Shown here one piece after another: positions 24,887 through 35,712 of a DNA stretch of 56,856 bases. The stretch is from assembly GCA_013001365.1 (NCBI GenBank), contig JABDMQ010000344.1:1-56856 (forward strand). Reading direction: 5' to 3'. A model generated the notes under the pieces. The model had not been told where the DNA came from, searched no databases, and saw only the letters and a program-made list of their open reading frames with translations. This stretch comes from Flavobacteriaceae bacterium. Lineage in GTDB: Bacteria; Bacteroidota; Bacteroidia; Flavobacteriales; Flavobacteriaceae. Each line of letters opens with the position of its first letter. Within the stretch, counting starts at the first letter, position 1. Both the position numbers and the translations under genes were made by a program.

Positions 24887-24960
24887 GGCCTCGTAGCATA
24901 ACTGAATAGTGCACTTGATTACGGCTCAAGAGGTTGCAGGTTTGAATCCTGCCGAGGTCA
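24887..24960 (+). tRNA. tRNA-Arg (anticodon ACG)
   Basis: I folded it by hand. The acceptor stem is GGCCTCG / CGAGGTC (one G-U pair). The anticodon stem is CTTGA / TCAAG with loop TT-ACG-GC. The T-arm is GCAGG-TTTGAAT-CCTGC. CCA is not encoded. Confidence 0.88.
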
Positions 24961-24965
24961 CGAAT

Positions 24966-25027
24966 AAACCAAAAATCCGCTAGGTAAATCAAGCTCGCTT
25001 GAATTTATTAAGGCGGATTTTTGGTTT
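24966..25027. terminator. Long extended hairpin immediately after tRNA-Arg (terminator-like, symmetric)
   Basis: A 15-bp outer stem, aaaccaaaaatccgc / gcggatttttggttt, encloses a 32-nt segment that can form its own small hairpin. The arms themselves supply the A- and T-runs. Confidence 0.5.
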
Positions 25028-25029
25028 TC

Positions 25030-25247
25030 AAAGCGGAGCTTTGTCAGGAAGGGCGTTAGCCAATCCTGTTTATTTTCAGCGCGGAGCGCTAAAGGATATG
25101 CAATCCTGCTTGAGCGTTTTTCTGTTTGGGCTATTTCCAAAGCGGAGCTTTGTCAGGAAGGGCGTGAGCCAATCCTGTTTATTTTCAGCGCGGAGCGCTA
25201 AAGGAGATGCAATCCTGCTTGAGCGTTTTTTTGTTTGGGTTATTTTC
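25030..25247 (+). repeat. Two tandem copies of a 109-bp GC-enriched structured repeat
   Basis: Unit 1 (25030-25138) and unit 2 (25139-25247) differ at 5 positions by hand alignment. Each has the hairpins caaagc-GGA-gctttg and agcgc-GGA-gcgct, then an aggat-atgca-atcct hairpin nested in a longer imperfect stem, then a T-run. Confidence 0.9.
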
Positions 25248-26446: not shown

Positions 26447-26962
26447 GTGAAAGAATTCGAGAGTTTTATAAGGGACATCCATGATTTTCCGAAGCCAGGT
26501 GTGCTCTTCAAGGACATTTCTCCATTATTAGCGAATCCTAAGGCTATGCACGATTGTACCAATGCATTGTATGATCTTATTGGGGACGAAAGAATTGATA
26601 AGGTCATAGGCATCGAATCACGAGGGTTTTTCTTTGCGACCCTACTTGCCAATAAATTCGATGCCGGTTTTATCCCAGTAAGGAAATCCGGTAAGTTACC
26701 ATATAAAACAGTTGCTGAATCCTATGAACTGGAATATGGTAATGGTATCCTGGAGATTCATGAAGATGCCATCCAGAAAGGGGATAGAGTTGTTATTCAT
26801 GATGATGTTCTTGCTACAGGAGGAACTGCAAGGGCAGTCTGTAATCTTGTCGAGAAACTTGGGGGTGAAATCGTTCAATGTAATTTCTTGATCGAACTTG
26901 TTTTCTTGAATGGAAAGGAGAAGATCCAAGAATTTCCTTATGCTGCGTTATTCAAGTATTAA
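26447..26962 (+). CDS. apt: Adenine phosphoribosyltransferase
   Basis: (M)KEFESFIRDIHDFPKPGVLFKDISPLL and the PRPP motif VVIHDDVLATGGTA are present. The start codon is GTG. Confidence 0.92.
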   Translation: MKEFESFIRDIHDFPKPGVLFKDISPLLANPKAMHDCTNALYDLIGDERIDKVIGIESRGFFFATLLANKFDAGFIPVRKSGKLPYKTVAESYELEYGNGILEIHEDAIQKGDRVVIHDDVLATGGTARAVCNLVEKLGGEIVQCNFLIELVFLNGKEKIQEFPYAALFKY

Positions 26963-27111
26963 TCTAACGCTCGCTTAGTAACATAAATGCGCCATCCGAA
27001 TATGGCCAGCTGTAATTTTGATGCCTTGGTAAGGTCCAATTGTTTCTTGGTGTAACTTGGAAGAATAAGTTTGTTCAGTTTAGCTAAGAATTTGAATATC
27101 GATTTTTGCAT
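26959..27111 (-). CDS. Unlisted 50-aa ORF (MQKSIFKFLAKLNKLILPSYTKKQLDLTKASKLQLAIFGWRIYVTKRALD)
   Basis: I translated it by hand, and it is below the track's size cut-off. A perfect minus-strand -7 box (plus-strand caaatata, 27180-27187) lies ~70 nt upstream. Its stop overlaps the apt stop. I recognise no family. Confidence 0.3.
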   Translation of the reverse strand: MQKSIFKFLAKLNKLILPSYTKKQLDLTKASKLQLAIFGWRIYVTKRALD

Positions 27112-27558
27112 AGAGTGATAAAAAAATAAAACTTACTCTAGAAATAAGTTTTATCCCGATGATTAATTGGCTGATTATGCAAATATAATATCGATAAGTA
27201 GTTTTGCTAAAGTTATCATAGTTTTTTTAGTGATTTACGATTAATTGATCTTGAATATTTAATAGCCATTTGCGCAATTGTTCAGCCAATATAGATTTTT
27301 GGAAATCTTTCCACCAAATATTTTTATTAAAATCTATGAATTTGCCTTTACATATATAACTATAAATATGTAAATGGTTACTAAGTTATAAATTAAGTCT
27401 AGGATGATATTAATAATTGTAATCATAATACATATAATGTCTTTATAATTATAACAATCATAGGGCTATTTTAGTTTCATTTTGAAAAACCAAGGTCATT
27501 TTCATCATTTTTTGACTGTTTTTGGCTGTTTTTATCTTTTTAGAGGAAAATAATCCTG

Positions 27559-27589
27559 AAAAAAAGACATTCCATTTGGAATGTCTTTT
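27559..27589 (-). terminator. Rho-independent terminator of the blaI/blaR1-like operon
   Basis: The stem is aaagacattcc / ggaatgtcttt. A plus-strand A7 upstream of the stem gives a U-run on the minus-strand transcript. It lies 24 nt downstream of the stop at 27613. Confidence 0.75.
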
Positions 27590-27612: not shown

Positions 27613-28593
27613 TTATTGTTTCTGAAGCGTAATTGCAATTATGGCACCATCTTTTGCTTTCTCGCCATAAATACTGACCGCTGTTTTACCTTTAAGTACA
27701 TCTACAGTATCCAATTTGTCATCTTTAGCTAGGGCATCAAGTTTTTTGAATGTTGATTCCTTGCCATCAATAATGATAAGTTTTTCTGTATTAGGGTCAT
27801 CATAGAATTTGAATTTCTGTGTTTTATGACCACTGTCATCCGAGTGCCATGACATAGAATCATCATCGTTAAAGAAGAAATTCATTCCTTTGCCTTTTCC
27901 CTTTTTAATGATTATGCGCTTGTCACCATTTTCATCTTCTTCGATCTTTAGCATGTCCTGCATATCTTCCATCATGTTGTCCATATTGAACGATCTACCA
28001 TTGAACAATAATATATTTCCATCCTCATTATCAAAATTAAACGAGAACTTATTACCATGAAGACTATCCAGCATGTGGAAACGATGTCCGAAAATAGAGT
28101 CCATGTTAAACGAATGCTTTGGCATATGATTGCCAAAGAAGGCAAAACTACCCATATGACTTTCACCTTGGGTTATATAAAGTGACCCATCTCTTCTGCC
28201 GAACGATATCTCATCTATAGGGAGATTACTCTGGCTACTGCTTAGTGTCTTTGACCCTGTATTAAGGTCTTCAAGCTCAATTTTTATTGATATGATCTCT
28301 CCGTCATCATTCCGTTTTATGTTCGTGAATGAGGCCTTTATGTCATGCTCCTTCAGCATGTCCATGATATCCTCGAATTCATCCTGCGTTGTCTTGCTAT
28401 CGACGGTGATATTGACATCGATTTCATTATTTACAATAGTGCTGGACATTGGATTGTAATTGTCTTTTGCAGAGAAGCTACTAAATGTAAGACCCAAGAC
28501 AGCGATCACTGCGATGATTGATACAAATTGTAATTTACCTGAAGTTTTCATTGTGTTTGATTTAAATATTAATATTTGATTTTTGATATTCAA
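27613..28593 (-). CDS. Exported/anchored protein paralogous to the BlaR1-like sensor ectodomain, with a His/Met-rich central region (326 aa)
   Basis: It has an N-terminal signal anchor. One module (DIKASFTNIKRNDDGEIISIKIELED) and one C-terminal module (LIIIDGKE...VDVLKGKTAVSIYGEKAKDGAIIAITLQ) are both shared with the upstream M56 protein. The centre is rich in H, M, D, N and F (HMPKHSFNMDSIFGHRFHMLDSLHG...MDNMMEDMQDM). Confidence 0.7.
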   Translation of the reverse strand: MNIKNQILIFKSNTMKTSGKLQFVSIIAVIAVLGLTFSSFSAKDNYNPMSSTIVNNEIDVNITVDSKTTQDEFEDIMDMLKEHDIKASFTNIKRNDDGEIISIKIELEDLNTGSKTLSSSQSNLPIDEISFGRRDGSLYITQGESHMGSFAFFGNHMPKHSFNMDSIFGHRFHMLDSLHGNKFSFNFDNEDGNILLFNGRSFNMDNMMEDMQDMLKIEEDENGDKRIIIKKGKGKGMNFFFNDDDSMSWHSDDSGHKTQKFKFYDDPNTEKLIIIDGKESTFKKLDALAKDDKLDTVDVLKGKTAVSIYGEKAKDGAIIAITLQKQ

Positions 28594-28606
28594 AAAGCAT
28601 TCCAGA

Positions 28607-30763
28607 TCAATATCCCCTAGTAATGGTCAATTTAGAATTTTTCTTACCTATTATTATCTCTGGAATAGCTTCTGGAGCAGTATTATAAGTAGAACTCGTT
28701 TTATTTCCTTTGTTGTCATCGAGATCTATCTTTATACGAGTTATATTGCCGTTTTTATCTCGTCTTATTTTTGAGAATTTAAGATCGATGTTGTCCTTGG
28801 CCAGTACTTTGACGTATTTATTGAATATTTCCTTGGTCGATGCTTTATTTATTTTAACTGTTAAAGCAGTTAGGTTATGCTCAGTAAAATGATTTTCGCC
28901 AGAGCCTTTTGTAACTATCTTGATAACGCCATCCTTACCTTCATCACCATAAACTTCGATTGCTGAATCGCCTTTTAAGACATTCATGGATTCTATTTTA
29001 TCCTTGTCTAATGTTACTATTATTTCTTCTTTAACTATATCGCCGTCGACTACGTACAAAGGTTTGCCATTACTTTTACCTGTGTTCCTAACTACATAGA
29101 CAAAACGATTGGAGTCCTTGTCTTTTCGTTTCATTCTTCGCTCTTCACGTTCTTCCATCATTTTTGCTCTATGCTCTTCCCTTAATTGCTTATGTTCATT
29201 AATACGCTCTTCATGCTCTCCTTTCATTTTTTCATGACGCTCTTTTAGCTCGATAATTCGAACTTCATGTTCTTCCTTCATCCTTGCCTTGCGATCTTCC
29301 ATTTGTGCTTTATGCTCTTCCATTCTCTCCTTATGTTCTTCTAGACGAACCTCATGCTCATGCTTAATTCTTTCATTACGCTCCTTCATCTTATGCTCTC
29401 TTTCGTGCATGCGCTCTTCATGTTCTTTCATTCGAATAACATGAATCTTATCCCTATTTGCGTTTCCGATACTAAAGCCACCGTTTTCCTTTGTCTGGAT
29501 CAAAATGGTTTCGATAGGGTCATCATCGTCTCCTTTTACATGATAGACTCCTGAATTTTCAGAATCCTTATCATTGTATTTTATCCTAATGCTCGTAATT
29601 TCTCCATCAGAGTTGTAATCAATGTCACTAAACTTGATTTCTACCCCTTTCTCTTTCATATCTAGACGAATCTTATCTAACTCTTCTTTTGTGGTATCCT
29701 TAGTGATTTTGACAATTATTTCAACGAATGATGCGGGTCCAAAATTTCTTTGGACTATTCCTTCAGTGTTTCCAAGTGTTGGCATGCTATTCTCAAAAAT
29801 TGGAAGTGCAGAATTACTTGATTGAGCTGAATAAAAGAATTCATATGAGGCTGGAATAACAGGCTCCGATTCCTTCACTATTTCAACTGTCTCTGTATTG
29901 AAACTCATAAGAAACAAGGCAAGAGCCGGAAGGATCAAAGTGTATTTCCATAAGTTTCTGGTTTTACTTGTCGATTGATTTAACATAACTATTCGTTTTT
30001 TGATTAATGAATTATAAAAATTGTTTGTGATTGATGTACAATATGGGGCAACACTCACTTTTAAGAGCGTATGCTGATAATTCTTTTTTGATGGCAATTT
30101 TGACACAGCGGACTTGTCAGCCAAGAATTCAAGGTTCTGTTGAATATCCTTTTTATATAACCATACGATAGGATTGACCCAAAGCAATGTTGCAAATAAT
30201 TGGGTGATCAAGATATCCAATGAATGGAGTTGTCTGCCATGGGCTTTTTCATGATTTAGAATGATCTTAAGGTCTTTAACCGAATAACTATTTGAGTTAT
30301 AAATTATATAGTTGAAGAAAGAAAATGGCGAGATATTTTCGGAGACTTCGATCATATTGAAGCCTTTGCTTTTTGTTAATTTCCCAGACCTTATCAATCG
30401 ATATAAGGACAATAGTTGTATGATAAAATGCAGCATGAATGCCACAACGCCGATTAAGTAGATCTTTATTAATAGTGTCAACCAATCAAAAGGGGCGGAT
30501 TGTTCAACCGACTCTTTTTCCACTAATTCAAGAGGAACATTCATTAATAAGCTATTATCAAATGATACAGTGGGCTCTACATATATGTAAGAGGTAAACA
30601 CTACCAAAGGCAATACTAACGATGCTAGGATTCCACCAAGTAGAAAATGACGATTTAAATTAAAAAACGTCTCCTTTTGTAAAAATAACTTGTAAGCGAG
30701 AAAAAATATGATCAAGATTCCCGCAGATTTCATTAAGTAAATAAAGAATGCTTCCATGATCAC
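28607..30763 (-). CDS. BlaR1/MecR1-like M56 peptidase-family signal transducer with a large non-PBP ectodomain (718 aa)
   Basis: It has N-terminal TM helices and the zinc-protease motif HEKAH (aa 171-175, nt 30239-30253). The extracytoplasmic part has two copies of a ~35-aa module, a 108-aa H/E/R/K/M segment (aa 441-548) and a plug-like motif, IESMNVLKGDSAIEVYGDEGKDGVIKIVTKG. It overlaps the upstream repressor gene by 4 nt. Confidence 0.85.
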   Translation of the reverse strand: MIMEAFFIYLMKSAGILIIFFLAYKLFLQKETFFNLNRHFLLGGILASLVLPLVVFTSYIYVEPTVSFDNSLLMNVPLELVEKESVEQSAPFDWLTLLIKIYLIGVVAFMLHFIIQLLSLYRLIRSGKLTKSKGFNMIEVSENISPFSFFNYIIYNSNSYSVKDLKIILNHEKAHGRQLHSLDILITQLFATLLWVNPIVWLYKKDIQQNLEFLADKSAVSKLPSKKNYQHTLLKVSVAPYCTSITNNFYNSLIKKRIVMLNQSTSKTRNLWKYTLILPALALFLMSFNTETVEIVKESEPVIPASYEFFYSAQSSNSALPIFENSMPTLGNTEGIVQRNFGPASFVEIIVKITKDTTKEELDKIRLDMKEKGVEIKFSDIDYNSDGEITSIRIKYNDKDSENSGVYHVKGDDDDPIETILIQTKENGGFSIGNANRDKIHVIRMKEHEERMHEREHKMKERNERIKHEHEVRLEEHKERMEEHKAQMEDRKARMKEEHEVRIIELKERHEKMKGEHEERINEHKQLREEHRAKMMEEREERRMKRKDKDSNRFVYVVRNTGKSNGKPLYVVDGDIVKEEIIVTLDKDKIESMNVLKGDSAIEVYGDEGKDGVIKIVTKGSGENHFTEHNLTALTVKINKASTKEIFNKYVKVLAKDNIDLKFSKIRRDKNGNITRIKIDLDDNKGNKTSSTYNTAPEAIPEIIIGKKNSKLTITRGY

Positions 30764-31119
30764 GATTTATTTTCGATTAGTTTTATAATTTCCTTGAGAT
30801 CCGCAACACTGATTTTTTCTTCCTTCGCAAAAAATGAAACTACATTCTTATAGCTACTATTGAAGTAATTATCAATTGCTGTATTGAAAAATCGTTTTCT
30901 ATAAGCTTCCTTGGTGATAATAGGGAAATATTGATGGGTTTTCCCAAAAGCAGTGTAGTCAACATAACCCTTGTCTTCTAAATTCCTTATAATTGTAGAT
31001 AAGGTATTGTAATGTGGTTGGTCATTCTTGATTTCGCCAAGAACATCCTTTACAAATGCCTTTTCAAGTTTCCAAAGAATCTGCATGACCTCTTCCTCCT
31101 TATTGGTTAGTTTTTCCAT
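30760..31119 (-). CDS. BlaI/MecI/CopY-family winged-helix transcriptional repressor
   Basis: MEKLTNKEEEVMQILWKLEKAFVKDVL...HYNTLSTIIRNLEDKGYVDY is typical of the Penicillinase_R family. I prefer the ATG at 31119 over the 18-codon extension in the track. Confidence 0.85.
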   Translation of the reverse strand: MEKLTNKEEEVMQILWKLEKAFVKDVLGEIKNDQPHYNTLSTIIRNLEDKGYVDYTAFGKTHQYFPIITKEAYRKRFFNTAIDNYFNSSYKNVVSFFAKEEKISVADLKEIIKLIENKS

Positions 31120-31148
31120 ATGATGCGATTTGATATGTTGCTCAAACT

Positions 31149-31190
31149 TATAACTAAAATTATAGTTATACAACTACATATATAGTTATT
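31149..31190. promoter_or_regulatory. Two adjacent palindromic operator candidates upstream of the blaI-like gene
   Basis: tataactaaaattatagttata (31149-31170) is a 22-bp palindrome with 1 mismatch. aactacatatatagtt (31172-31187) is a 16-bp palindrome with 1 mismatch. Both share the TATAGTTAT half-site and lie 30-70 nt upstream of the repressor start. Confidence 0.55.
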
Positions 31191-31322: not shown

Positions 31323-32267
31323 ATGAGTGTTGTATACTTGATTCTCGGATTTGTACTGTTAGTAGTAGGGGGTGAGTACCTTGTGCGCTCTTCGGTGGCA
31401 CTTTCCTTCAAGCTGAATATTTCAAAGTTCGTGATAGGCATGACAGTCGTGTCTTTTGCCACATCAGCACCTGAGTTATTGGTCAGCTTACAAGCCGCCT
31501 TCAATGGGTCTCCAGCCATAGCAATTAATAACGTGGTGGGATCAAATATTGCGAATATTGGTCTTGTTTTAGGAATAACTGCTATGGTGGGCTCCATTTC
31601 GGTCGATAGGTCTTTTTATAAAATGAATTGGCCGGTCATGATGGTTTTTTCCATGGTCCTGTTTTATTTTCTTTATAATGATAATAAGTTGGTGTATTGG
31701 GAAGGAATCATTCTTTTTTCAGGTTTGTTGATATTTCTATTTGCTTTAATAAGAGGACAGAAATCATCGGCAGACTCTGAAGATGTTGATATAAATTTAG
31801 CACAAGTGTCCAATTTCAAAATGGCTTTATGGTTATCGATTGGAGCGGCAGCTTTGTATTTTGGATCTGAATGGTTGGTGCGAGGGGCAACTGAAATAGC
31901 TACACAACTCGGTGTTAGTGAGGCAGTAATTGGAGTTACCATGATTGCCATTGGAACGAGTGTACCAGAGTTAGCAGCTTCAGTAATTGCAGCAGCAAAG
32001 CAAGAGAAAGCTATTTCCTTGGGAAATTTAATAGGATCGAACATTTTTAATATCGGATCGGTCCTTGGTTTAACCTCCATAATAAAAACCATTCCTATTA
32101 ACGAACCAATGATATTGTCACGTGATATTTTTTGGATGTTGATATTTGCAGGAATAATATTGCCATTGGCATTGATTCCTAAGCGACATGAGATCAATAA
32201 GATTAAAGGCTTCCTATTGGTTCTTGGTTATGGAACTTTCGTCTTCTTGGCCTTTTTCACAGGATAA
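31323..32267 (+). CDS. Ca2+/Na+ antiporter, CaCA (YrbG-like) family
   Basis: It has two alpha-repeats (GMTVVSFATSAPELLVSL and GVTMIAIGTSVPELAASV) and ~10 TM helices. Confidence 0.88.
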   Translation: MSVVYLILGFVLLVVGGEYLVRSSVALSFKLNISKFVIGMTVVSFATSAPELLVSLQAAFNGSPAIAINNVVGSNIANIGLVLGITAMVGSISVDRSFYKMNWPVMMVFSMVLFYFLYNDNKLVYWEGIILFSGLLIFLFALIRGQKSSADSEDVDINLAQVSNFKMALWLSIGAAALYFGSEWLVRGATEIATQLGVSEAVIGVTMIAIGTSVPELAASVIAAAKQEKAISLGNLIGSNIFNIGSVLGLTSIIKTIPINEPMILSRDIFWMLIFAGIILPLALIPKRHEINKIKGFLLVLGYGTFVFLAFFTG

Positions 32268-32303
32268 AAAAATGCCTTCATTAATAAATGAAGGCATTAA
32301 TTC
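32265..32303. terminator. Terminator hairpin between the convergent antiporter and GSII genes
   Basis: An 11-bp stem, aatgccttcat / atgaaggcatt, is preceded by A6 on the plus strand, so it is strongest for the minus-strand GSII transcript. Confidence 0.7.
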
Positions 32304-32321
32304 TCTTTGCTTGTTGACTAA

Positions 32322-33350
32322 TTAAGCTGGTACAGCAATATCTGCACTTTTCACAGTCTTAATGATTCTACCTGCAATCTTATATGGGTCAGCGTTAGAT
32401 GCCGGACGACGATCTTCCAACCAACCTTTCCAACCATTTTCTACGGTAATAATTGGAATCCTTATTGAAGCTCCTCTATCAGATACGCCATAGCTAAAGT
32501 CCGTAATGGCGGCTGTTTCATGTAATCCAGTTAATCGCTGGTCATTAAATTCGCCGTAAACAGCTATATGCTCATCAACTACCGGTCTGAATGCTTCACA
32601 TATTTTTTCATAAATCTCCTGACTTCCACAAGTTCTTAAAGTCGTATTCGAGAAGTTAGCGTGCATTCCTGAACCATTCCAGTCCATGTCTTTCCCTAAT
32701 GGTTTTGGATGGTACTCTATATAGTAACCATATTGCTCTGTCAATCTATCAAGAAGATACCTTGCGATCCAGATTTCGTCTCCAGCTTTCTTCGCTCCTT
32801 TAGCGAATAATTGGAATTCCCACTGACCAGAAGCGACTTCTTGGTTAATACCTTCAAAATTCAGTCCTGCAGCAATACAAAGGTCCGCATGCTCTTCGAC
32901 CAAATCCCTTCCATGAGTGTTCTTGCCACCAACTGAGCAATAGTACATGCCTTGAGGAGCCGGGTAACCACCAACAGGGAACCCAAGTGGAAGTCCAGTT
33001 GTAGTATCCATAATAAAATATTCTTGCTCGAAACCGAACCAGAAATCATTATCATCATCATCAATTGTAGCTCTGCCATTAGACACATGAGGAGAGCCAT
33101 CAGCATTTAAGACCTCTGTCATTACCAGGTATCCATTCTTTCTTGCTGGATCTGGATAAATTGCAACAGGCTTCAATAAACAATCTGAAGAATCTCCAGT
33201 CGCTTGCTTAGTTGAACTTCCATCAAATGACCATATTGGACAATCCTCTAATTTTCCACTAAAGTCTTCTTCAACTTTAGTCTTACTTCTCATGTTTTGA
33301 GTTGGTTTATAACCATCTAACCATATGTACTCAAGTTTCGATTTGCTCAT
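32322..33350 (-). CDS. glnA: Glutamine synthetase type II (eukaryote-like, 342 aa)
   Basis: LEYIWLDGYKPTQNMRSKTK, the core FGFEQEYF and MHANFS are typical of GSII, as is the size. Confidence 0.9.
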   Translation of the reverse strand: MSKSKLEYIWLDGYKPTQNMRSKTKVEEDFSGKLEDCPIWSFDGSSTKQATGDSSDCLLKPVAIYPDPARKNGYLVMTEVLNADGSPHVSNGRATIDDDDNDFWFGFEQEYFIMDTTTGLPLGFPVGGYPAPQGMYYCSVGGKNTHGRDLVEEHADLCIAAGLNFEGINQEVASGQWEFQLFAKGAKKAGDEIWIARYLLDRLTEQYGYYIEYHPKPLGKDMDWNGSGMHANFSNTTLRTCGSQEIYEKICEAFRPVVDEHIAVYGEFNDQRLTGLHETAAITDFSYGVSDRGASIRIPIITVENGWKGWLEDRRPASNADPYKIAGRIIKTVKSADIAVPA

Positions 33351-33499
33351 GCTTCAATAGTTTAATAATTAAAGATGCAAATATTGGCAATAAAAATAAT
33401 TGGAGCAAAAAAAATGGGGTCTTTTAGATAAAATGTTATTAATAATTGTTAATAACCCTATTTTTCATAGGGGAGCACCCCTAAAATTTAATTATATTG

Positions 33500-33507
33500 T
33501 ATTTTTG
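33500..33507 (+). promoter_or_regulatory. Candidate -7 box (TATTTTTG) for the GSIII gene
   Basis: It lies 18 nt upstream of the ATG at 33526 and inside the track's N-terminal extension. Confidence 0.5.
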
Positions 33508-33525
33508 ACCCAAAATTTTTCGAAT

Positions 33526-35712
33526 ATGTCAACATTACGATTTCATGCATTAAAAGCAAGTTTGGATAGAAAGCCTATAAAAGTGGTTGAGACCGAGAAA
33601 CGTTCATCATTATTTGGGCTAAATGTGTTTAACGATTCAGCAATGAGGCAATCCCTGACCAAGGATGCCTATGAAAGCGTAAATGATGCCATTGAAAAAG
33701 GCACCAAGATAAAAAGAAGTATTGCCGATCAAATAGCATCGGCGATGAAGGATTGGGCAATTAATAAAGGAGTGACTCACTATACCCATTGGTTTCAACC
33801 TTTGACAGGAGCCACTGCTGAAAAGCATGATGCTTTCTTCGAAACAATTGGTAATGGATCAGCAATCGAAAAATTCGGAGGTGGACAATTGGTTCAGCAG
33901 GAACCAGACGCATCGAGTTTTCCGCATGGCGGAATAAGGAATACGTTCGAAGCGCGTGGCTATACAGCCTGGGATCCAACCTCGCCTGCATTCATTTATG
34001 GCACGACGCTTTGTATACCAACCATATTTGTTTCTTATACAGGAGAGGCATTGGATTATAAAACTCCATTGCTTAAAGCATTGCAAGCAGTTGATAGTGC
34101 AGCTGTTGCTGTTGCTCGGTATTTTGACAAGAATGTAAAGAAGGTAAATGCCTCTTTAGGTTGGGAGCAAGAGTATTTCTTGATTGATAGTGCTTTAGCA
34201 TCTTCAAGACCAGATATAATAATGACCGGAAGAACTCTTTTAGGTCATTCGCCAGCTAAAGGACAACAATTGGACGATCATTATTTTGGAACGATTCCTA
34301 ATCGGGCAATGGCATTCATGCGGGATCTAGAAACGGAATGTATGCTTCTTGGTATTCCTGTTAAAACAAGGCATAACGAGGTGGCACCAAATCAGTTTGA
34401 ACTGGCTCCAATATATGAGGAGGCTAACCTCGCTGTGGATCATAATTCGTTGTTAATGGACATCATGGAGAAAATAGCGCAGCGACATAATTTCAAGGTT
34501 TTGTTTCATGAGAAACCTTTCGAAGGGATCAATGGATCTGGAAAACACAATAACTGGAGCTTAAGTACAGATACTGGAGTTAATCTTCTTAGCCCAGGTA
34601 AGACACCTATGAGCAATCTTCAATTCTTAGCGTTTTTCATAAACACCATTAAAGCTGTTAACGAATATGAGGATCTACTAAGGGCCTCAATAGCAACAGC
34701 AGGCAATGATCATAGATTGGGTGCCAATGAAGCACCACCGGCAATTTTATCTGTTTTTATTGGAGAGCAATTGACCAGCGTTTTGAATGAATTGGAAAAT
34801 GTAACGCAAGGCAAGCTATCACCAAAGGAAAAAACAGACCTAAAACTTAATGTTGTGGGGAAAATTCCTGAAATATTATTGGATAACACGGATAGAAACC
34901 GCACATCTCCATTTGCTTTTACGGGCAATAAGTTTGAATTTAGGGCAGTAGGCTCAAATGCAAATTGTGCTAAGGCCATGACGGTACTTAATTCCATTGT
35001 AGCAAATCAATTGATTGAATTCAAGAAGGAAGTAGATCTCCTCATTGATAAAAAGGACATGAAAAAAGATGATGCGGTCTTTAATATCTTAAGAGAATAC
35101 ATCAAGAAATCGAAGAATATCTTGTTTGAAGGTAACGGTTATTCCCAAGCTTGGGAAAAAGAGGCTAAAAAACGTGGGTTAAGCAATAACAAGACAACAC
35201 CTGAAGCTCTAAAAGCAAAGACTACAAAGAAAGCTATTGCATTGTTCGAGGAACTCAATGTCATGAACAGAGTGGAACAGGAAGCCCGTTATGAAATTGA
35301 AATTGAAGAATATATCTTACGAATCCAGATTGAAAGTCGTGTCTTAGGAGACATTGCTCGAAACCATATAGTTCCTACTGCAGTAAAATACCAAAATGTC
35401 CTTATCAAGAATGTGACTGGTTTAAAGGAGATCTATGAAGATAAATACAAGAATGTGGCCAAGGAGCAAATCGAACTCATTCAAGAAATTTCAAGTCAGA
35501 TCGAATCTATAAACTCCAAGGTCACGAAAATGATTGAGGAAAGAAAAAAAGCAAATGTCATCGGCGATTCGGAGAAGAAGGCGCAAGCCTACTGTTCAAA
35601 AGTTAGATCGTACTTTGATGAAATTCGATATCACTGCGATAAACTTGAACTATTAGTTGATGATGAAATCTGGCCTCTTACAAAATACCGAGAATTATTG
35701 TTCACGAAATAG
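33526..35712 (+). CDS. glnN: Glutamine synthetase type III (728 aa)
   Basis: It has the MSTLRFHALK start, WEQEYFLID, NEVAPNQFELAP and FHEKPFEGINGSGKHNNWS. The size is typical of Bacteroidota GSIII. I rejected the upstream 42-codon extension. Confidence 0.9.
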   Translation: MSTLRFHALKASLDRKPIKVVETEKRSSLFGLNVFNDSAMRQSLTKDAYESVNDAIEKGTKIKRSIADQIASAMKDWAINKGVTHYTHWFQPLTGATAEKHDAFFETIGNGSAIEKFGGGQLVQQEPDASSFPHGGIRNTFEARGYTAWDPTSPAFIYGTTLCIPTIFVSYTGEALDYKTPLLKALQAVDSAAVAVARYFDKNVKKVNASLGWEQEYFLIDSALASSRPDIIMTGRTLLGHSPAKGQQLDDHYFGTIPNRAMAFMRDLETECMLLGIPVKTRHNEVAPNQFELAPIYEEANLAVDHNSLLMDIMEKIAQRHNFKVLFHEKPFEGINGSGKHNNWSLSTDTGVNLLSPGKTPMSNLQFLAFFINTIKAVNEYEDLLRASIATAGNDHRLGANEAPPAILSVFIGEQLTSVLNELENVTQGKLSPKEKTDLKLNVVGKIPEILLDNTDRNRTSPFAFTGNKFEFRAVGSNANCAKAMTVLNSIVANQLIEFKKEVDLLIDKKDMKKDDAVFNILREYIKKSKNILFEGNGYSQAWEKEAKKRGLSNNKTTPEALKAKTTKKAIALFEELNVMNRVEQEARYEIEIEEYILRIQIESRVLGDIARNHIVPTAVKYQNVLIKNVTGLKEIYEDKYKNVAKEQIELIQEISSQIESINSKVTKMIEERKKANVIGDSEKKAQAYCSKVRSYFDEIRYHCDKLELLVDDEIWPLTKYRELLFTK

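Follow-up and report, generated by a model that had tools for sequence, protein, structure and literature searches.

The closest described relatives of the locus treated here are the BlaI/BlaR1 and MecI/MecR1 switches of Staphylococcus aureus, for which the scissile bond of the repressor (N101|F102) and the roles of the catalytic and autocleavage residues of the membrane protease BlaR1 have been described (PMC9834060). Beyond these systems, approximately 15,000 M56 proteins represent 254 architectures, with only ~6% carrying a transpeptidase domain; the architecture with TonB_C is the second commonest, and the Plug architecture counts 100 entries or more (PMC13492132). The M56-TonB fusions of Bacteroides thetaiotaomicron have been noted as uncharacterised (PMC10350073), and the literature searched contained no functional work on M56+Plug systems or on BlaI in flavobacteria. 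Here, we describe such a locus in a marine Flavobacteriaceae bacterium (GenBank assembly GCA_013001365.1, contig JABDMQ010000344.1), within a stretch of 56,856 nucleotides (nt) that was analyzed as a whole and is referred to below as the window. Three open reading frames (ORFs) on the minus strand (27613-31173) encode a repressor, an M56 transducer, and an exported third protein. We favor, with moderate confidence, the reading that the locus is an autoregulated BlaI/BlaR1-type regulated-proteolysis switch, in which the sensor consists of a TonB-dependent transporter plug fragment (module P) and a recurrent module termed A, the third gene encodes an exported partner, and the signal comes from the envelope or the TonB machinery. 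An earlier note on this DNA had proposed that the arrangement, with no penicillin-binding protein (PBP) domain as its sensor, was uncharacterized, which holds insofar as no functional study was found, whereas the concept is not new because both M56+Plug proteins and the transpeptidase-less majority have been published (PMC13492132).

The three genes are closely spaced and the third gene appears to be co-transcribed with the other two. Based on alignments with homologs, translation of the repressor (119 amino acids, aa) likely begins at ATG 31119, that of the transducer at ATG 30757 (716 aa) or GTG 30763 (718 aa), and that of the third protein (312 aa) at ATG 28551. The TGA stop codon of the repressor overlaps the transducer GTG and lies 2 nt ahead of the transducer ATG, and an AT-rich gap of 55 nt, within which neither a hairpin nor a TAnnTTTG -7 box was found, separates the transducer from the third gene. 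An intrinsic terminator on the minus strand (27562-27589), with a 12-bp stem and a T-run, closes the operon 24 nt past the third-gene stop. The coupled or closely spaced minus-strand genes and the clean terminator described in the earlier note were confirmed in all of these elements. No further repressor, M56, A, P, or TonB_C sequences were found elsewhere in the window, and an Rfam scan of the window returned two tRNAs and nothing else.

The first gene (30760-31119, minus strand) encodes a winged-helix repressor of the BlaI/MecI family, as had been claimed. The protein matches Pfam Penicillinase_R (PF03965) with 102.1 bits (cutoff 22.6, E = 3e-29) over profile positions 1-114 of 115, and aligns end to end with MecI crystal structures (E = 1e-7). 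In the alignment, the BlaI/MecI scissile position falls on F95|F96 within VVSF|FAKEE, a candidate cleavage site in which the P1' Phe is at least 90% conserved in 57 orthologs and P1 is Phe instead of Asn. The surrounding segment, YFNnSYKN.VSFFAKEEKI, is likewise at least 90% conserved across the 57 orthologous repressors, which come from related loci. None of these 57 repressors contains a Cys residue and the CopY metal site (CxCx4CxC) is therefore absent; moreover, the CopY/TcrY equivalog TIGR02698 scores 47.7 bits against the repressor, far below its cutoff of 121.95. The lack of Cys, the sub-cutoff CopY_TcrY score, and the cleavage-site motif together indicate a BlaI-type repressor that would be released by proteolysis and not a metal-binding CopY-type repressor.

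Two palindromes of the form AACTA-N6-TAGTT, a distal one at 31172-31187 (AACTACATATATAGTT) and a proximal one at 31152-31167 (AACTAAAATTATAGTT), are located upstream of the repressor gene. The proximal copy abuts a predicted sigma-A -7 box on the minus strand (TAAGTTTG, 31143-31150), which follows the flavobacterial consensus TAnnTTTG, expected at positions -12 to -5 (PMC9723704), and transcription is predicted to start near 31138. The motif occurs exactly twice in the 56.9-kb window, with the copies 20 bp apart, against a chance expectation of 0.05, and two or more matches occurred in none of 100 shuffles. Among 57 loci (56 related loci and the window), 54 have operators upstream of the repressor gene, mostly in two to three tandem copies and with exactly the same 20-bp spacing. 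The TAnnTTTG box begins exactly 2 nt after the proximal operator core in 43 of these 54 loci (window included), and six more carry the variant TAGTTATATTTG. At the other end of the promoter, the TAGTTG end of the distal operator would lie at about the position expected for a -33 element. The palindromic operators claimed in the earlier note are thus present and conserved in related loci, and the way in which they are combined with the -7 box suggests, with binding predicted from sequence, repression by promoter occlusion together with autoregulation.

The leader between the promoter and the repressor varies in length among the related loci. Several of them have a leader of 100-200 nt from the operator/promoter to the repressor ATG that holds the Flavo-1 RNA motif (RF01705), with matches at L010:7958-8032, L017:7912-7990, and L052:7971-8057 that score 46-58 bits (gathering score 42), and the leader in the window is ~19 nt long and without Flavo-1. 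This RNA is without known function and shows dispersed-repeat behavior (PMC9723704).

The N-terminal part of the transducer (aa 1-300; 29864-30763, minus strand) is a membrane and M56 gluzincin domain. It matches Pfam Peptidase_M56 with 55.3 bits (cutoff 31, E = 7e-15), and a Foldseek comparison of the AlphaFold model with the BlaR1 cryo-EM structure 8exr gave a TM score of 0.52 and a root-mean-square deviation (rmsd) of 2.9 Å over 170 columns (probability 1.0). In the phmmer alignment, H171, E172, and H175 of the HEKAH motif (aa 171-175; 30239-30253, minus strand) correspond to BlaR1 H201, E202, and H205, while E212 and D216 of EFLAD (30116-30130, minus strand) correspond to E242 and D246, and Y229 to the catalytic Tyr, Y261. 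The same alignment places ITNN|F249 (ITNN|FYN..SLIKKR) on the BlaR1 autocleavage site LSHS|F284 (LSHS|FNgkkSLLKRR) and K256-R257 on R293-R294. Both motifs are invariant in an alignment of 36 homologs, as are the catalytic residues overall and N247, F249, K255, K256, and R257. Given the aligned motif, autocleavage is predicted at the dipeptide N248|F249 (30017-30022, minus strand). Pfam, Foldseek, and the residue alignment agree on the HExxH transducer that had been recognized from the sequence, and the switch is mechanistically well anchored at its cytoplasmic end.

The last membrane helix of the transducer aligns with that of BlaR1 and, accordingly, the C-terminal 420 residues are extracytoplasmic by homology, i.e., periplasmic in Bacteroidota. 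The similarity to BlaR1 ends at the membrane domain in both the Foldseek and the phmmer matches. No Pfam or NCBIfam match to a transpeptidase/PBP domain (PF00905 or related) was found in the transducer, which bears out the earlier claim that a PBP-like sensor is missing, nor was one found in five scanned homologs or in the precomputed Pfam columns of the listed homologs. The NCBIfam model blaR1_generic (NF000326) reaches 24.9 bits (cutoff 400), with a match confined to the M56 part.

Instead, the sensor is composed of two A modules and a P mini-domain of ~60 aa, neither of which is, as judged from sequence, a penicillin- or metal-binding domain. The ectodomain of ~420 aa is modeled in the order A, long helix, P, A. 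The first copy of module A (aa 348-436; 29456-29722, minus strand) has AlphaFold pLDDT values of 78-85 and matches a local hidden Markov model (HMM) with E = 1e-27, and the second copy (aa 634-718; 28610-28864, minus strand; pLDDT 85-92, E = 5e-28) gives the best BLASTP match to the third protein. The repeated ectodomain module of the earlier note is real, although it measures ~85 aa and not ~35 aa, and consists in the AlphaFold model of a beta-alpha-beta-beta core followed by three further strands. Profile and structure searches of the ectodomain, proposed previously and now carried out, identified P as a plug fragment and left A without a Pfam or PDB relative. When the third-protein model was compared with PDB structures by Foldseek, no match reached E <= 0.001, and the module A profile A3 matched no natural protein at E < 0.1 among PDB sequences; the single match below 0.1 was a de novo designed beta-sheet protein (E = 0.014). 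Pfam scans of 24 isolated modules revealed no consistent family.

Several candidate identities for module A were set aside. SnoaL/NTF2-like and MviM folds were the best Foldseek matches, with probabilities of only 0.35 or less, and weak matches to DUF7713 in two homologs were not reproduced with isolated modules. Calcium binding, an idea prompted by a neighboring Na/Ca-exchanger gene and by D/N-rich loops, is not supported by the sequence: by eye, the NDDGEI-type turns misfit an EF-hand loop, with K or I at position 1 and K at position 12, and EF-hand_5 matched one of 24 modules (E = 0.08). The exchanger gene belongs to a wider conserved block, in which two glutamine synthetase genes are also found.

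Module A is a recurrent component of flavobacterial M56 proteins. A profile of 24 copies, searched against 1.84 billion proteins clustered at 50% identity, matched 1,564 cluster representatives at E <= 1e-3; with the threshold set to E <= 1e-10, the number was 835. The best 140 matches were mostly M56 proteins, with the architectures M-A-A (44), M-A-P-A (22, the type found in the window), M-P-A-A (10), and M-A-P-P-A (9), and also included stand-alone exported A-A and A-P-A proteins. All of the members with a source name are from Flavobacteriaceae.

Module P (aa 565-620; 28904-29071, minus strand) is a fragment of a SusC/RagA-type plug. It matches NCBIfam TIGR04056 (E = 4.6e-10, 38.5 against a cutoff of 368) and TIGR04057 (E = 3.9e-6, 26.6 against a cutoff of 46.2), aligns with RagA residues 60-116 (phmmer, E = 3.5e-5), and in homologs matches Pfam Plug at profile positions 38-107 of 107. 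Together with the Foldseek result for the third protein given below, these matches substantiate the plug-like motif that had been noticed in the ectodomain. P is a plug fragment only, with ~57-66 matching residues and without the 22-strand beta-barrel of a TonB-dependent transporter, and a TonB box was not identified in it. Homolog alignments of the ectodomain showed no invariant His, Cys, or Met in any module.

The two parts of the ectodomain are joined by a charged E/R/K/H/M tract that had been pointed out previously and is modeled by AlphaFold as one continuous helix (aa 437-545; 29129-29455, minus strand; pLDDT 62-78). Its 109 uninterrupted residues include 31 E, 18 R, 15 K, 13 H, and 10 M, with 20% hydrophobic residues, and over the aligned tract (aa 432-563) E, R, and K together account for 53% and His for 10%. 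Opposite-charge pairs spaced i, i+4 number 27, compared to 19.5±3.3 in shuffled sequences (35 of 2000 shuffles reached or exceeded the observed value). At 0.15 nm per residue, the modeled helix would extend ~16 nm, long enough to carry the distal modules far across the periplasm, and would thus serve as a putative periplasmic stalk, whether it stands alone as a possible ER/K-type alpha-helix or pairs into a coiled coil when the sensor dimerizes. The charged tract is limited to the clade with at least 40% identity, and in more distant positional orthologs, e.g., in Psychroserpens, a second P module replaces the helix.

The third gene (27613-28551, minus strand) encodes an exported protein that shares both modules with the transducer. 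Its 193 homologs, where the source is named, are from Flavobacteriaceae or from unclassified Bacteroidia metagenome-assembled genomes. The protein had been given as 326 aa in length, which the likely start shortens to 312 aa; its existence, the predicted signal peptide (28468-28551, minus strand), and the modules shared with the sensor stand. BLASTP aligns it with the transducer over three separate stretches (E = 1e-9, 9e-8, and 7e-7), in agreement with the proposed paralogy to parts of the ectodomain, and AlphaFold resolves one A module (aa 42-130; 28162-28428, minus strand) and one P module (aa 247-310; 27622-27813, minus strand), each with pLDDT above 90. The P module superposes on the SusC plug with a Foldseek probability of 0.93, 33% identity over 61 columns, and an rmsd of 2.8 Å. 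Between the modules lies a variable F/D/N-rich linker with a His/Met tract (aa 131-244; 27820-28161, minus strand), modeled with pLDDT below 50 over most of its length. The composition common to most members is Phe of 12-21% (21 of 23 members) and Asp plus Asn of 20-30% (20 of 23).

The conserved three-gene arrangement raised in the earlier note was surveyed in 80 species-level loci, which were fetched with the third protein as query. A repressor gene and an M56 gene adjoin the third-gene homolog on the same strand in 56 of the 80 loci, and in two further truncated loci (L004 and L037). The arrangement occurs in two orders, repressor-M56-third in 26 of the 56 linked loci and third-repressor-M56 in 30. 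From the side of the transducer, at least 16 of its 26 closest homologs share a contig with a third-gene homolog. Orthologous loci are present in the cultured genera Aquimarina, Gelidibacter, Mariniflexile, Winogradskyella, and Yeosuana. The third gene is probably coupled functionally to the repressor-M56 pair.

The chromosomal site is also conserved. A gene encoding A and P modules (A/P gene) or the repressor-M56 pair follows a divergent Na/Ca-exchanger gene (Na_Ca_ex) within a block that comprises glutamine synthetase type III (GSIII), glutamine synthetase type II (GSII), the exchanger, and apt. This block, including the A/P gene or genes, is syntenic across many genera of Flavobacteriaceae (window 31323-35712 and loci L001-L086), and the exchanger gene is present in 77 of 81 loci. 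Since the A/P gene or the repressor-M56 pair is always divergent from the exchanger, the intergenic region is common to both. In Aquimarina gracilis (L059:2806-6661), two tandem M56 transducer genes follow a single repressor gene and are followed by a third-gene homolog.

Operators of the same type were also found in front of other genes. In a metagenome scan for the tandem operator with the -7 box, which yielded 120 loci, the downstream gene encodes a BlaI-like repressor in 96 loci and something else in 13. The latter include TonB_C-domain proteins in five loci (three small secreted proteins and two full TonB proteins), an outer-membrane barrel of the Pfam family OMP_b-brl_3 (L093), a truncated ORF without a Pfam match that resembles this barrel at its N-terminus (L200), exported thioredoxin-like (AhpC/TSA) proteins in two loci (one of them, L094, with a lipoprotein-type signal), a TPR protein in one locus, small exported proteins (L088 and L153), and an 83-aa ORF located 399 nt downstream (L097). 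Downstream of the metagenome repressors, the encoded sensors contain many different combinations of TonB_C, P, and A, and some have P and TonB_C in one ectodomain. In L205, the operator/promoter is followed by genes for a small secreted TonB_C protein, a repressor, and an M56 protein with a TonB_C ectodomain; the order is repeated in L122, where the contig ends within the M56 gene, before any ectodomain. Loci L093, L094, L104, L122, L137, L160, L187, L200, and L205 provide candidate members of BlaI-like regulons in Bacteroidota.

The TonB_C, barrel, and thioredoxin-like targets, together with the P and TonB_C sensors, point to the envelope, above all to TonB-dependent transport. We therefore infer, in what is the weakest step of the argument, that the envelope provides the signal in the form of a protein-level state, most likely tied to TonB-dependent transport or outer-membrane proteins, and that the signal is neither a small-molecule metal nor a beta-lactam. 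A lipopolysaccharide-defective Riemerella mutant upregulates a BlaI-family regulator (PMC5294843), for which orthology to the window locus is not established.

In the switch that we favor, a repressor dimer would bind the two tandem AACTA-N6-TAGTT operators over the -33 and -7 elements of its own promoter, and occupancy of the operators would shut off the repressor-transducer-third gene operon. A periplasmic event would pass through the four-helix membrane domain of the transducer, as homology to BlaR1 suggests, and the cytoplasm-facing zinc site (H171ExxH175, E212xxxD216, and Y229) would be freed from the autocleavage loop at N248|F249. By analogy, the freed M56 site may cut the repressor at the conserved VVSF|FAKEE, which would derepress the operon and probably distal genes as well. 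The third protein, being a free exported A-linker-P protein, may bind the partner of the sensor or the sensor itself, and would thus act as a competitor, co-sensor, or feedback element.

Several observations weigh against this switch with its exported partner, and some of them speak for a different history of the third gene. Signal, cleavage, and regulon are predictions from sequence and homology, and the non-repressor operator targets lie on unassigned metagenome contigs and may belong to paralogous BlaI/M56 systems. In the third-repressor-M56 order (30 of the 56 linked loci, or about half), the third gene lies upstream of the operators and is therefore not under their control. At least 13 loci with full flanks carry the third gene without the repressor-M56 pair, a close ortholog locus (L081) has the pair without the third gene, and at the same chromosomal site, A-A and A-P-A genes also stand alone, with no sensor gene present. 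The P modules of the third protein and the sensor are 40.6% identical within their own locus and 40.1% between loci, and the A modules 30.3% and 30.5%, respectively; with equal identity within and between loci there is no sign of co-adaptation, and both co-adaptation and gene conversion of the modules were rejected. It is possible, though on the doubtful side, that the third gene is functionally independent, an older resident of the exchanger-side site which, itself or through a relative, donated the sensor modules. In that case, adjacency would be inherited synteny, and the targets of the repressor-M56 pair would be limited to its own genes and distal envelope genes. This history fits the finding that GSIII, GSII, Na_Ca_ex, the A/P gene, and apt form a backbone kept in most loci regardless of the repressor-M56 pair. 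On the other hand, neither a promoter-like box nor a terminator lies in the 55-nt gap and the three genes end at a single shared terminator, same-strand adjacency is found in both gene orders, and an exported copy of a sensor module recurs with TonB_C, where it is directly under the operator.

The remaining alternatives concern what the transducer senses or does. The earlier note had inferred a metal switch, in which the His-rich helix and the His/Met/Asp core of the third protein would bind periplasmic Cu, Zn, or Ni and drive repressor cleavage. In the window, the core does contain 8 His and 11 Met within 113 residues, and in the 11 closest orthologs the helix tract is 7-11% His, which clearly exceeds the usual background; one JGI record automatically names a member of the third-protein family 'methionine-rich copper-binding protein CopC', and CopY_TcrY is the best NCBIfam match of the repressor by E-value, though far below the cutoff. 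However, the richness of the core is not a conserved family feature, as the His content of the linker ranges from 0 to 9% across the family and is zero in 8 of 23 members, the family alignment of the third protein has no invariant His, Met, or Cys column, and the core is modeled as disordered. His is only 2-3% of the helix in P0018, P0020, P0023, and P0024 of the same clade, more distant positional orthologs have no helix, the repressors lack the Cys residues of CopY, and Pfam and NCBIfam scans of the third protein gave no match to a CopC/PcoC/CusF-like copper-protein family. Metal sensing is accordingly improbable and was not upheld. A structural or energy-coupling role, in which the M56 protein is no signal sensor but a TonB-like tether to the outer membrane and its protease processes non-repressor substrates, would account for the long helical spacer with a plug-derived distal module, and sister proteins with TonB_C have been counted as TonB homologs in B. 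thetaiotaomicron (PMC10350073). It is nevertheless very improbable: the stop/start overlap couples the transducer tightly to a BlaI-family gene, the repressor keeps its cleavage-site motif, the autoregulatory operators are conserved, and ~96% of ~15,000 M56 proteins are encoded within five genes of a BlaI-like repressor (PMC13492132). As for a beta-lactam sensor like BlaR1/MecR1, solely the homology of the M56 domain and the repressor speaks for it, whereas the transpeptidase/PBP scans and the blaR1_generic score described above, and an operon without a beta-lactamase or PBP gene, make it a practically negligible prospect.

Several elements are new compared to what is known of regulated-proteolysis switches: module A has been defined and a stalk helix recognized, the operator is fused to the -7 box in a conserved manner, the sensor module recurs as an exported copy, and first operator targets other than repressors have come into view. 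The locus is a compact example, with defined parts, of the very numerous group of proteins with module A, and only ~6% of M56/BlaR-like proteins sense beta-lactams (PMC13492132), which leaves a mostly unstudied majority. Its conserved operator motif provides a handle for regulon prediction in any complete genome, and monitoring of the envelope or of TonB-dependent uptake by marine polysaccharide-degrading flavobacteria becomes testable through the orthologs in cultured genera. A broader and speculative generalization, which we consider unlikely, is that the BlaR-type M56 proteases of Flavobacteriaceae and Bacteroidota carry out envelope surveillance of the TonB/outer-membrane machinery, with pieces of that machinery as sensors, a threshold set by decoys, and a regulon of TonB, barrel, and redox proteins. 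If true, this would be a new trans-envelope signaling logic, distinct from the sigma/anti-sigma coupling to TonB-dependent transporters, in which sensors present a plug fragment, TonB_C, or module A at the end of a stalk across the periplasm, the threshold is set by an exported version of a module that is free of the sensor and serves as a competitor or decoy, and the regulon consists of TonB paralogs, outer-membrane barrels, and periplasmic redox proteins.

Other features were observed in the vicinity of the operon. A 109-bp unit is present in 2.0 copies with 95% identity at 25025-25245, in an intergenic region directly downstream of a tRNA gene (24887-24960), where it yields several overlapping spurious ORFs and has no Rfam match. 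A conserved 50-aa ORF on the minus strand (26959-27111; MQKSIFKFLAKLNKLILPSYTKKQLDLTKASKLQLAIFGWRIYVTKRALD) overlaps the apt stop by 4 nt, and near-identical small ORFs occur at the same place in L083 and L084, without an assigned family. Just past the operon terminator, a 10-bp tandem repeat (TTTTTGACTG, 2.5 copies; 27509-27533) sits inside a stretch of ~450 bp without a convincing ORF. Between the convergent Na/Ca-exchanger and glutamine synthetase genes, there is a perfect palindrome with a 12-bp stem (32271-32298) that was scored as a terminator on both strands.

Compared to described systems, the window locus shares with S. aureus BlaI/BlaR1 and MecI/MecR1 (PMC9834060) a Penicillinase_R repressor with an aligned cleavage site and P1' Phe, a four-helix M56 gluzincin with HExxH, ExxxD, the catalytic Tyr, and the Phe of the autocleavage loop, a repressor gene directly upstream of the sensor gene, and palindromic operators over its own promoter. 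It differs in facing a Gram-negative periplasm, in its AACTA/TAGTT half-sites, in the Phe instead of Asn aligned at P1, and in encoding an additional exported protein paralogous to the sensor modules; moreover, it has neither a transpeptidase-like sensor nor a beta-lactamase or PBP gene as a target. CenIR of C. difficile and mycobacterial BlaIR likewise combine an M56 sensor and a BlaI-like repressor with a non-beta-lactam signal, whereas the C-terminus of CenR is short and largely unstructured compared to the ~420-aa window ectodomain with its three folded modules and stalk helix (PMC13492132). With CopY/TcrY, the window repressor has the BlaI winged-helix superfamily in common and differs in lacking the C-terminal Cys motif; also, it is paired with an M56 protease, which CopY systems are not known to include.

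The ectodomain has its counterparts within the phylum. P aligns with the plug of RagA and superposes on that of SusC (PDB 6sm3 and 8a9y), although it comprises ~60 residues without a barrel and would be tethered to the inner membrane or released close to it, outside any outer-membrane barrel. The TonB1 and TonB10 M56-TonB_C fusions of B. thetaiotaomicron (PMC10350073) share the phylum and the M56 N-terminal half with the window protein, and M56-TonB_C fusions in the metagenome loci also share the operator/promoter type and an ectodomain derived from parts of TonB-dependent transport. Where these fusions carry TonB_C, the window protein carries P and A instead.

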